Part shown: positions 19,701 to 21,442 of the stretch, piece after piece | How the letters are laid out: every line of letters starts with the position of its first letter | How positions within the stretch are numbered: the first letter of the stretch is position 1 | DNA from: a phage | Length of the DNA stretch: 64,000 nt | Assembly (NCBI GenBank): GCA_014161675.1 | Contig: GCA_014161675.1_4760.1 | Strand: one strand, 5' to 3' | Notes under the pieces: model-generated | The model's input: only the letters and a program-made list of their open reading frames with translations | Told to the model about the DNA's origin: nothing | The model's database searches: none | Translations under genes and position numbers: made by a program

Positions 19701-21442
19701 GCGTGATTGAAGGGATTAACGCAATGGCGACGGATGAACACCCGCTACATTTAGCGCATCCGTCTACACTAGAAACTAAAATTGATTCAAACGGCATTGA
19801 ATGGATTTTATCAAAGCATGATGATAAATGGTATCCTAAAAAGTTTTCTGACTATCTGAAATTAAACAGACCGCAGAAAATAAGGATGCAAAGCACTGAT
19901 CCAACAAATTATAAGTTCTTTAAAGATAGTGACAATATTCGCACGCGGTATATGCGATTAAAGAACTTGCGAAGGGCGAATATTAAAACTCAGTATACCC
20001 CTGAAATGATCGCAGAGTGGAAACGATGCCGTAAAGATATTGTGTATTTTGCCGAAACCTATTGCGCAATTACACACATCGACTACGGTACAATCAAAGT
20101 ACAATTGCGTGATTATCAGAAAGATATGCTTAAGATCATGCATGAAAACCGCATGAGCGCACATAAACTCAGCCGTCAGCTAGGGAAAACTACCGCTGTA
20201 GCAATATTCCTTGCTCACTACGTTTGTTTTAATAAAGACAAAGCGGTAGGTATACTGGCACACAAAGGGTCAATGGCGGTTGAAGTTCTAGAACGTACTA
20301 AACAAGCAATTGAACTATTACCAGACTTCTTACAGCCAGGTATTGTTGAATGGAACAAGAAATCAATTGTTCTTGAAAACGGTTCAAGTATTGGTGCTTA
20401 TGCGTCGTCTCCTGATGCTGTGCGTGGTAACTCTTTTTCGTTTATCTACATAGACGAATGCGTTAGTGGCTTGACCAAAGTTACATTACGTGATAAGCTA
20501 ACAGGTGAGATTAAAGAATACACCATGTTAGAGGTTAAGATGATGGCTATTCAGCAAAAGTTAAGTAAAATTAAAGAGTTATTGCTACCACACGCTAAAA
20601 ATCCAAACTTGACTCGCGGATTAATTTCTGGCATAACGAAAGAAATGATGGATGAGTTTAAAGAGTTTTTCGACACTCATTTTCACAAAACAGATACAAT
20701 GAGAGAATTTGTAGCATGTGTAGTAAATGATATTCTGGAACGCCCAACGTGTAAGCATTGCGGAGGCCGAGTAAAATATAGTAAAGTTCGACCGAGATAT
20801 AATAATGTATGTTCTCAGTCATGTAACGCTAAATTACCAAAGCGTAGAGGACTCTTTAACAATAATTGGGTATTCTTCCGGCGATACTTATGCACCGGAT
20901 GTAATGAGTTTACAGCAAAATGTAAAGGTCATTTATGCAGAAAATGCGGGCATGAACAACAAGGCGAGGCGATGAAACGCATATACGTCGAAAACGGTGA
21001 TGAAATGCGCAAAAAGTGTAACGGCAAGAAAACACCAGAACAAAGGGCTAAACAGTCCGAACAAGTTAAACAGCGTATTCTGAATGGTGAATTTACTCCT
21101 AAGACGACCAACCGTCTTAATCACACCCGCATTAAGTATGATGGTCATAGCTTTCGTAGCTCATGGGAATTAGCTTTCTATAAAGATATGAAAGCTAAAG
21201 GAGTTAATATTGAATATGAAACGCTTCGTGTTGCATACAAATTTAAAGGAAATAATCACGTTTATATTACGGACTTCGTAGATCACGATAATAAGATCAT
21301 TTATGAAGTTAAGCCTAAGCGACTTGTTGAAGATCCAAAAACAATGGCGAAAGAACAAGCCGCTATAGAATGGTGTAAGGAAAACGGATACACTTTCGAA
21401 TATATTCACGAGGATTATATTAATGAACTTTTGGAATCTTGA
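19697..21442 (+). CDS. 17: gp17 terminase large subunit N-extein (ATPase, 254 aa) fused in frame to putative intein N-fragment and a Cys-rich nuclease-like domain
   Basis: Walker A 'SRQLGKT' and Walker B 'FIYIDE' as in T4 gp17; the next residue is Cys (codon 20459-20461) starting '[12 protein letters not shown]...' (intein block A-like); then about 300 aa with Cys clusters and a 'DFVD...EVK' motif. Confidence 0.75.

Follow-up and report, generated by a model that had tools for sequence, protein, structure and literature searches.

How can a phage live when its sole gene for the large terminase subunit is broken within the Walker B codons, and in what form does the nuclease encoded between the two halves act? 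This question is raised by gp17, the gene for the large terminase subunit (TerL), in a stretch of phage DNA of 64,000 nucleotides (nt) (NCBI GenBank assembly GCA_014161675.1, contig GCA_014161675.1_4760.1; hereafter the window), which belongs to a T4-type myovirus of the genus Krischvirus (RB49-like). Taken as a whole, the locus is very probably best explained by a mobile element, combining a split intein with a homing endonuclease, that sits in the Walker B codons of this essential terminase gene.

The element in gp17 and its split intein

In RB49, gp17 is one open reading frame (ORF) of 607 amino acids (aa) that reads ...FIYIDE-CAFIQNW..., with the DNA ...TTTATCTACATTGATGAA|TGCGCATTTATTCAAAAC... 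at the insertion site. In the window, a multiple DNA alignment reveals a 1282-nt element (20459-21740; plus strand, as are all window features described here) that interrupts gp17 at Walker B (IDE|C), the alignment gap falling precisely between GAA (Glu) and TGC (Cys). The element is missing from RB49, FL37, Sf20, Phi1, Makalu_001, and G37-3, where the IDE|CAF site is intact. ORF A of the window (19697-21442) is a single uninterrupted frame of 581 aa that joins TerL residues 1-254, an intein N-fragment, and a nuclease of ~300 aa. Its N-extein (aa 1-254, 19697-20458) matches Pfam Terminase_6N (6e-26), ends in FIYIDE (aa 249-254, 20441-20458), and is collinear with RB49 gp17 up to IDE. ORF B (21423-22802) lies in another frame and overlaps ORF A by 20 nt; it encodes an intein C-fragment of 106 aa (21423-21740), ending in ...NVESHN, and then the remainder of TerL from CAFIQNW on, namely a C-extein of 353 aa (21741-22802, with Cys+1 at 21741-21743) that matches the C-half of Pfam Terminase_6N as well as Terminase_6C and is also collinear with RB49 gp17. 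The two exteins add up to 607 aa (254 + 353), equal to RB49 gp17. The exteins of the window are 99.7-100% identical to those of FL37 and Sf20, two phages without the intein; for the N-extein, nt identity is 99.7%. At the ORF A/ORF B junction (21409-21442), a Shine-Dalgarno (SD) sequence, GAGGA (21409-21413; -5.9 kcal/mol), precedes the ATG of ORF B (21423) and the stop codon of ORF A (21440-21442). The surrounding gene order is gp15, gp16 (small terminase, 19203-19700), split gp17, and gp18 (sheath, 22837-24840), and positions 19600-22900 matched 64 phage records by megablast, nearly all of them Escherichia or Shigella krischviruses.

The intein N-fragment (20459-20548) begins with Cys1 (C255, 20459-20461) and comprises 27 aa (255-281, 20459-20539) before a pair of ATGs at 20540 and 20543, or ~30 aa by homology; it aligns with the 30-aa N-fragment of a metagenomic T4-like contig (L006), which ends in a stop codon, and with the contiguous mini-intein of Desulfovibrio phage 7757. 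In the alignment with L006, the last turn of the N-fragment seems to include the two ATGs, which suggests that they lie inside this turn rather than after it. The splicing residues are complete: Cys1, the block-B His (SESH), the terminal His-Asn (VESHN), and Cys+1. A fused query of N- and C-fragments matched PDB 6DSL chain B ('Consensus engineered intein CatC') by phmmer with an E-value of 3.4e-13 over 108 residues, with weaker matches to DnaE inteins, and homologues of the C-fragment occur in 82 phage records. Since Pfam gave no intein match for ORF B and NCBIfam gave no name for the nuclease or the intein C-fragment, the identification of the intein rests on the 6DSL match and the splicing motifs; the N-fragment alone, too short as a query, returned only coiled-coil noise from the PDB.

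Cat is the consensus of the atypically split terminase inteins AceL-TerL and GOS-TerL, in which an N-piece of 25-37 aa and a C-piece of ~104 aa trans-splice in vitro (PMC11766414). The fragments in the window (N 27-30 aa, C 106 aa) are within this pattern of short N and long C, and the intein is a member of the known AceL-TerL/GOS-TerL/Cat family, with which it shares the TerL host, the split topology, a homologous C-fragment, and Cys1/HN/Cys+1 chemistry. However, AceL-TerL, GOS-TerL, and Cat were studied as isolated metagenome-derived fragments (Thiel 2014; Bachmann and Mootz 2015; Stevens 2018, per PMC11766414), whereas the window-type element resides in cultured coliphages, where the native N-fragment bears a C-terminal extension of 300 aa.

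This extension is obligatory: the frame runs from the N-fragment to 21440 without a stop codon, and therefore every TerL N-part is made with the nuclease attached. Because TerL is essential and the phages were isolated as viable, the N-fragment must work between an extein of 254 aa and a nuclease of 300 aa. From the viability of phages in which the split TerL is the sole TerL, we infer that trans-splicing takes place in the window phage; function without splicing is unlikely, given ~430 foreign residues inside Walker B and the conservation of all splicing residues. For protein engineering, the locus implies that a short N-fragment of the AceL-TerL type works when embedded between two large domains.

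The nuclease domain and its family

A sequence-only reading of the window had pointed to Cys clusters after the N-fragment and to a PD-(D/E)XK-like nuclease, and both are borne out, the latter by profile (above Pfam thresholds), by sequence (T7 endonuclease I), and by structure. The C-terminal part (21077-21439) comprises a family linker motif and the nuclease domain, with FRSSWE at 21152-21169, YITDF at 21263-21277, and YEVKPK at 21302-21319. The nuclease exceeds the Pfam gathering cutoffs for PF08722 (Tn7_TnsA-like_N; 34.9 bits, cutoff 26.5, E 2.3e-8) and PF05367 (Phage_endo_I; 31.4 bits, cutoff 29.1), and matches PHROG 15427 'endonuclease' at 6.7e-48. It also matches T7 endonuclease I (1m0d) by phmmer (E 3e-4) with all four catalytic residues aligned, SSWE, TDF, and EVK corresponding to the catalytic SGLE, PDF, and VETK of that enzyme. 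In an alignment of 62 nuclease homologues, with residues numbered from the Met at 20540, the invariant columns are R206, S207, E210, E227, D245, F246, E256, K258, P259, and K271, and these include a complete E-D-ExK set, namely E210 (SSWE; codon 21167-21169), D245 (TDF; 21272-21274), and E256 and K258 (EVK; 21305-21307 and 21311-21313). PF08722 was matched by 49 of the 62. AlphaFold2, run on this alignment, gave a predicted local distance difference test (pLDDT) score >90 over the C-terminal ~140 residues, which adopt a restriction-endonuclease-like alpha/beta core fold.

The N-terminal part begins with a region of predicted helices (20540-20749; MMAIQQKL...NPNLTRG...) of low to moderate pLDDT, homologous to the N-terminus of the free-standing L006 nuclease and to that of the distant Shewanella phage Thanatos-2. 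Cys cluster 1 (20750-20824, aa 352-376; CxxC...CxxxC, CKHCGG...CSQSC) is a presumed zinc-binding DNA-recognition module whose four Cys are conserved in the window, the SAP-type krischvirus alleles, Thanatos-2, and L006. Cys cluster 2 (20891-20947, aa 399-417; CxxC...CxxC, CTGC...CKGHLCRKC), a presumed zinc ribbon with a weak match to Pfam DZR_2 (E 0.064), is conserved in every lineage, including truncated forms of 199 aa. Both four-Cys sets are kept in lineages at only 35-60% protein identity. In comparisons with the other krischvirus alleles, dN/dS (ratio of nonsynonymous to synonymous substitution rates) was 0.15-0.16 in both halves of the nuclease, a result unaffected by region boundaries that lie 3 aa off the true extein/intein junction. 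Judged from its sequence, this PD-(D/E)XK nuclease is intact and under purifying selection, and its DNA-binding part is presumed to depend on zinc.

The likeness to the TnsA N-terminal domain of Tn7 and to T7 endonuclease I consists in the Pfam thresholds passed and the alignment of the E...D...ExK residues. Identity to these proteins is, however, ~18%; TnsB and TnsC are absent here, there is no sign of junction resolution, and the nuclease carries N-terminal zinc-cluster or NUMOD3 DNA-binding modules and is found inside self-splicing elements. For the endonucleases of fractured genes, Dassa 2009 (PMC2677866) describes only GIY-YIG and 'Vsr-like' enzymes, and the Vsr-like group later became the EDxHD family (I-Bth0305I), which has a catalytic His and no ExK lysine (PMC3239194). 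EDxHD enzymes likewise combine an N-terminal NUMOD-type DNA-binding region with a C-terminal catalytic domain and likewise occur in fractured genes; in contrast, the 62 homologues analyzed here all have E, D, E, and K and share no conserved His. Neither the single nuclease sequence (phmmer) nor the family profile matched 3r3p, and no Pfam match to GIY-YIG or Vsr was obtained, the top matches being TnsA_N and Phage_endo_I. The resemblance to EDxHD is therefore one at the superfamily level only. Membership in the EDxHD/Vsr-like group, considered on account of the JGI label 'very-short-patch-repair endonuclease' on two homologues, is ruled out by the active-site residues, and F-CphI was rejected as a relative because it has an Endo VII motif (PMC6083498).

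An exhaustive profile search of 1.84 billion representatives yielded 703 family clusters at E<=1e-30, 1833 at 1e-10, and 5704 at 1e-3, mostly of ~300 aa. The C-terminal domain and the linker motif ILxGxFTPxxNNRxTHW are constant, and the N-terminus is variable, with NUMOD3 in 26 of the 62 homologues and C2H2, BED, or other zinc fingers in others; phage homing endonucleases are typically built in this modular way, from a variable binding part and a constant catalytic part. Family members also lie, together with intein pieces, between the halves of broken UvsW-type helicase genes (L010 and L011, 2457-5218; L013, 1498-5232; L014), and one is found in a broken PhoH gene (L012, 2051-5181). In the literature searched, we found no description of a TnsA/T7 endonuclease I-like homing endonuclease in split inteins and no experimental characterization of this nuclease family. 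The family is thus a possible new homing-endonuclease lineage, which would be added to the recognized families and would provide a new modular scaffold for DNA cutting.

Two further observations concern the catalytic domain and its surroundings. The domain also matches PHROG 218 and 14892 ('head closure') and has BFVD neighbours named 'Head completion nuclease', and it may share ancestry with the T4-type head-completion nuclease; tblastn found no paralogue of the nuclease elsewhere in the window. Separately, the helicase N-part at L013 holds a second intein with weak LAGLIDADG-type Pfam matches.

Fusion of the nuclease to the intein N-fragment

The sequence-only reading had likened the locus to the layout of fractured genes, a comparison that holds for the position of the nuclease between split-intein halves and for the overlap of the two ORFs, and fails for the fusion and for the type of nuclease. 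In the layout described by Dassa 2009 (PMC2677866), the N-part ends in a stop codon and is followed by a spacer of 27-51 nt and a free-standing endonuclease gene, the 3' end of which overlaps the C-fragment ORF by 6-69 bp; promoter and hairpin elements upstream of such endonuclease genes were also reported there. As in those systems, an essential phage enzyme gene in a T4-like phage is broken by a split intein, the endonuclease lies on the same strand between the halves, and the 3' overlap is of similar extent (20 nt, 21423-21442). In particular, a metagenomic gp17 locus from Lake Gatun, 'fractured at an unusual point' with a C-part of 122 residues (Dassa 2009, PMC2677866), shares the unusual split point, short N-piece, and long C-piece. 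Unlike the fractured genes, the window has neither the stop codon nor the 27-51-nt spacer, the nuclease being in frame with TerL-N and the N-fragment; no late promoter or hairpin precedes the nuclease; and the nuclease is neither GIY-YIG nor Vsr-like, the classes described in that source. In L006, L007, and phage phiR1-RT, a stop codon is present, but there is a 14-nt overlap instead of a spacer.

The element in the window equally resembles a canonical bifunctional intein, such as the LAGLIDADG-containing one at the Walker A site of krischvirus AV108 TerL: endonuclease and N-terminal splicing region share one reading frame and would depart from the host protein together. It differs in that the chain stops at 21440-21442, with the C-terminal splicing region beginning anew at 21423 in a different frame, so that splicing would occur in trans; in that a PD-(D/E)XK nuclease takes the place of a LAGLIDADG or HNH enzyme; and in that the insertion follows the first ~27-30 residues of the HINT domain rather than the usual site after block B.

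The same fused frame is present in seven independently sequenced krischviruses (SAP, TB34, kaaroe, G2494, phiS, JK32, and GoldenSnicker), so the fusion is not a sequencing artefact, and Thanatos-2 has a fused ORF that is likewise 581 aa long. Seven of the 150 best representatives of the family have a length of 581-803 aa and carry the nuclease at their very C-terminus, and five of these seven (P0143, P0161, P0186, P0201, and P0218) combine UvsW_N, ResIII/DEAD, Hint/Intein_splicing, NUMOD3, and TnsA_N in one ORF. For P0201 (L028, 205-2872), the one with genomic context checked, the insertion is at the helicase VDE|C box and the next ORF overlaps by 23 nt, an overlap as in the window. At the helicase loci both fused and unfused arrangements exist, L010 having the classical 27-nt spacer.

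At the TerL site itself, four states are found. A contiguous mini-intein occupies IDE|C in Desulfovibrio phage 7757 and in Vibrio phage vB_VmeM-32 (704-aa TerL). Separate ORFs are present in L006, where the nuclease ORF of 287 aa starts 14 nt upstream of the N-fragment stop codon in another frame. The in-frame fusion is found in the window, the seven krischviruses, the metagenomic contigs P0156 and P0182/L029, and Thanatos-2. Finally, phiR1-RT, TG1, PspYZU05 (= L008), HY03, SG1, PD112, and others have a truncated form: a 15-aa tail (KALAIAQKEAKNAKE), homologous to the fused frame of the window, closes the N-fragment ORF, and the nuclease, reduced to 199 aa by loss of the first ~100 residues, including the first Cys cluster, starts in another frame. 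Judging from the homologous tail, the truncated state is evidently derived from the fused one, which makes the fused frame an old one, sufficiently stable to have given rise to descendants in several genera.

A second product may nevertheless be made from the fused frame. The sequence-only reading had noted the ATG at 20540 with a GAGG 5 nt upstream and had proposed that the nuclease could be made as a fusion or separately; the start signal is indeed there, and a separate start is plausible, but the fusion is not optional. In this candidate start (20531-20545), GAGG at 20531-20534 is followed by a 5-nt spacer and ATG ATG. Its anti-SD pairing of -6.5 kcal/mol is stronger than that of 98.5% of the 270 in-frame ATGs inside the window's long plus-strand ORFs, and 71% of the real starts pair more weakly. 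The seven aligned krischvirus sequences that bear the element, window included, all retain both GAGG and ATGATG. L007, with a different start point for its nuclease, encodes the same four residues, Leu-Glu-Val-Lys, as CTT GAA GTT AAA, followed by GCA TTA, with neither SD nor ATG. Thanatos-2 has KNL in place of KMM, and its sole candidate starts pair at +0.4, -3.3, and -1.0 kcal/mol. Thus, the window phage probably also makes a free nuclease of 300 aa from ATG 20540, so that both forms would be present, and the Thanatos-2 nuclease is probably made only as a fusion; in our reading, some lineages at least have a functional fusion product.

The mechanism proposed for the window starts from a 581-aa precursor, which ORF A would provide by joining TerL-N, the intein N-fragment, and the nuclease, and from an ORF B product in which the intein C-fragment is joined to TerL-C. 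The intein pieces would associate and trans-splice to give a normal TerL of 607 aa, freeing an N-fragment-nuclease chain (~327 aa) held to the 106-aa C-fragment by non-covalent contacts. Such a complex would amount to a bifunctional intein closed on the N side only. We suggest tentatively that the fusion is a selected working state, in which the nuclease acts within the excised, reassembled intein and its release, and possibly its activity, depends on trans-splicing. It is also possible, if doubtful, that only the 300-aa protein initiated separately at ATG 20540/20543 works and that the fusion is a neutral accident of stop loss, the attached nuclease being inert. The quality of the SD/ATG at 20540, which is that of a real gene and is kept throughout the aligned krischviruses, points in this direction, as do the separate ORF with nearly the same start point in L006, the closest relative outside the genus, and the free-standing ~300-aa form of most family members. 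Evidence against such an accident comes from Thanatos-2, which keeps the fusion without an ATG or a credible SD near that point, from the independent recurrence of fused forms in UvsW helicase loci, and from the 15-aa tail of the phiR1-RT-type phages, which is read in the intein frame and marks the fused frame as old.

If the fusion is a selected state, homing would be tied in stoichiometry and timing to the making of functional terminase, with no need for a promoter and ribosome-binding site (RBS) of its own, and the loci would be living intermediates between a free-standing endonuclease and a true bifunctional intein in genetically tractable E. coli phages. The building of endonucleases into inteins has been argued from models, with few intermediates (Dassa 2009, PMC2677866; Gosselin et al. 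2025 preprint). Here, one TerL site offers four states: the intein may be a contiguous mini-intein, or it may be split, the nuclease then being a separate ORF, an N-side fusion, or a truncated derivative of the fusion. Cultured E. coli phages with intein-free sisters such as RB49 carry the fused state, which makes homing, trans-splicing, and the role of the fusion testable by phage genetics. The system differs from those described in its recurrent, old, in-frame fusion on the N side, in its E-D-ExK endonuclease family, and in its presence as a whole in cultured coliphages.

Probable mobility of the element and the remaining explanations

The distribution and variation of the element bear on its mobility. 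It is present in only seven of >60 krischvirus records in the phage collection, plus the window. In Shigella phage JK32 (L003), the element is 99-100% identical to those of kaaroe and G2494, but TerL-C is only 91.7% and gp18 only 82% identical; near-identity extends from gp16 to ~400 nt past the insertion, and divergence begins at the equivalent of ~22150 in the window. This break looks like the edge of a co-conversion or recombination tract that brought the element in. A conserved catalytic sequence such as Walker B is the usual kind of target for a homing endonuclease. Thanatos-1, the sister of the element-bearing Thanatos-2, was described without the 1.2-kb insertion (PMC7530303). The homing-endonuclease interpretation already offered by the sequence-only reading fits this context, in which IDE|CAF is uninterrupted in RB49 and most krischviruses, close relatives of the nuclease occur as separate ORFs between gp17 halves, and other family members occur in the UvsW and PhoH loci. 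In a mixed infection, the nuclease would cut intein-less gp17 alleles near ...ATTGATGAA|TGCGCATTT..., and recombinational repair of the cut allele would copy the element in.

The presumed DNA-binding half of the nuclease has a history of its own. Between the window and the other krischvirus elements, nt identity is 95-99% in the N-fragment, the nuclease domain, and the C-fragment; over 20540-20980, it is only ~70% to the other seven elements, with dS ~1.7 and dN/dS 0.16. A third allele, P0182, combines a window-like first half with a SAP-like second zinc cluster. The pattern of identities suggests that the recognition part has been shuffled between alleles by recombination or module swapping, with the zinc ligands fixed. 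Near the insertion site, the Asp codon at 20453-20455 is GAC in all seven aligned occupied alleles, window included, and GAT in all six empty ones; this synonymous difference may be a donor marker carried over by co-conversion, or it may reflect an effect at the target site.

Several points weigh against the interpretation of the locus as a mobile element with an active homing endonuclease fused to a working split intein. The GAC/GAT association could also reflect co-conversion or chance linkage and gives nothing firm on the cut site. The zinc-cluster region was modelled at a pLDDT of 43-70, and its DNA binding is only presumed. The atypically split inteins are said to need one end of the N-fragment to be threaded into the C-fragment (PMC11766414, summarising Stevens 2018), for which an N-fragment blocked at both ends, between a 254-aa extein and a 300-aa nuclease, is topologically awkward. 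Nor does the nuclease have a promoter, terminator, or regulatory hairpin of its own: no TATAAATA late promoter was found inside the element, the nearest being at 22798, before gene 18; sigma-70-like matches in the element are at chance level, and no terminator was found there; and an RBS-sequestering hairpin is absent, the fold of 20480-20600 being no better than that of shuffled sequences (z = -0.41). Expression of the nuclease is thus simply late gp17 expression, and the lack of these signals is consistent with an element that rides on it.

It is improbable that the nuclease is a decaying relic within a fixed, vertically inherited element of which only the split intein matters. Decay of this kind is predicted by the standard model of the homing cycle (bioRxiv 10.1101/2025.01.02.630785), and phiR1-RT, PspYZU05, HY03, SG1, and their relatives, with their ~100 N-terminal residues and first Cys cluster lost, would represent it. 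The window ORF, however, is full length with its four catalytic residues and all zinc ligands intact; the low dN/dS extends even to the diverged DNA-binding part; and vertical inheritance is at odds with the patchy distribution of the element and with its far greater conservation than the flanks in JK32. Still less probable is a non-selfish role, in which a recruited structure-specific nuclease, whether a T7 endonuclease I-like resolvase or a head-completion nuclease, would aid packaging. The above-threshold match to Pfam Phage_endo_I, the matches to PHROG families named 'Holliday junction resolvase' and 'head closure', and the BFVD neighbours named 'Head completion nuclease' and 'Holliday junction resolvase' would suit such a role, but RB49 and >50 other krischvirus records package DNA without this nuclease, which lies inside an intein, has relatives inside other broken genes (UvsW, PhoH), and shows the modular layout of a homing endonuclease, with a variable N-terminus (NUMOD3 or zinc fingers) and a conserved catalytic C-terminus. 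That the split gp17 is a pseudogene, a frameshift, or an assembly error, as might be read from 'similar to large terminase' as the only annotation of the region in G2494 and GoldenSnicker and from 'a 1.2 kbp insertion ... leading to a frameshift' in the Thanatos paper (PMC7530303), is refuted by comparative data, since architecture and frames are the same in eight krischvirus genomes (the window and seven records), Thanatos-2, and metagenomic contigs, TerL is essential in phages isolated as viable, and both intein halves have every splicing residue.

Database records and related phages provide some additional observations. In MK327935 (G2494), OR896832 (GoldenSnicker), MN850574 (kaaroe), PP449093 (phiS), and MT457553 (Thanatos-2), the split gp17 appears variously as a pseudogene-like misc_feature, under the names 'hypothetical protein' or 'DNA packaging enzyme', or as a pair of 'terminase large subunit' genes, and none of these five records names an intein or a homing endonuclease; according to a 2024 paper, no inteins had been reported in coliphages (PMC11162368). 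In Campylobacter phage CPX (L025, 2498-3826) and 41 Campylobacter phage records, the TerL C-part begins with a C-fragment homologue directly after a gp13-like gene; these phages have no adjacent TerL N-part, and the halves appear to be encoded far apart. Phages AV108 (L005, 495-3311), ELT3, and FL15 have a different, contiguous intein of 331 aa at the TerL Walker A motif (GK|T), which in AV108 starts with Ala, ends in HN|T, and contains LAGLIDADG-like motifs. In the metagenomic krischvirus contig P0182 (803 aa; L029, 3001-5412), a shortened Walker A intein of 222 aa occurs in the same gp17 as the Walker B split intein and nuclease, making krischvirus gp17 a double target.

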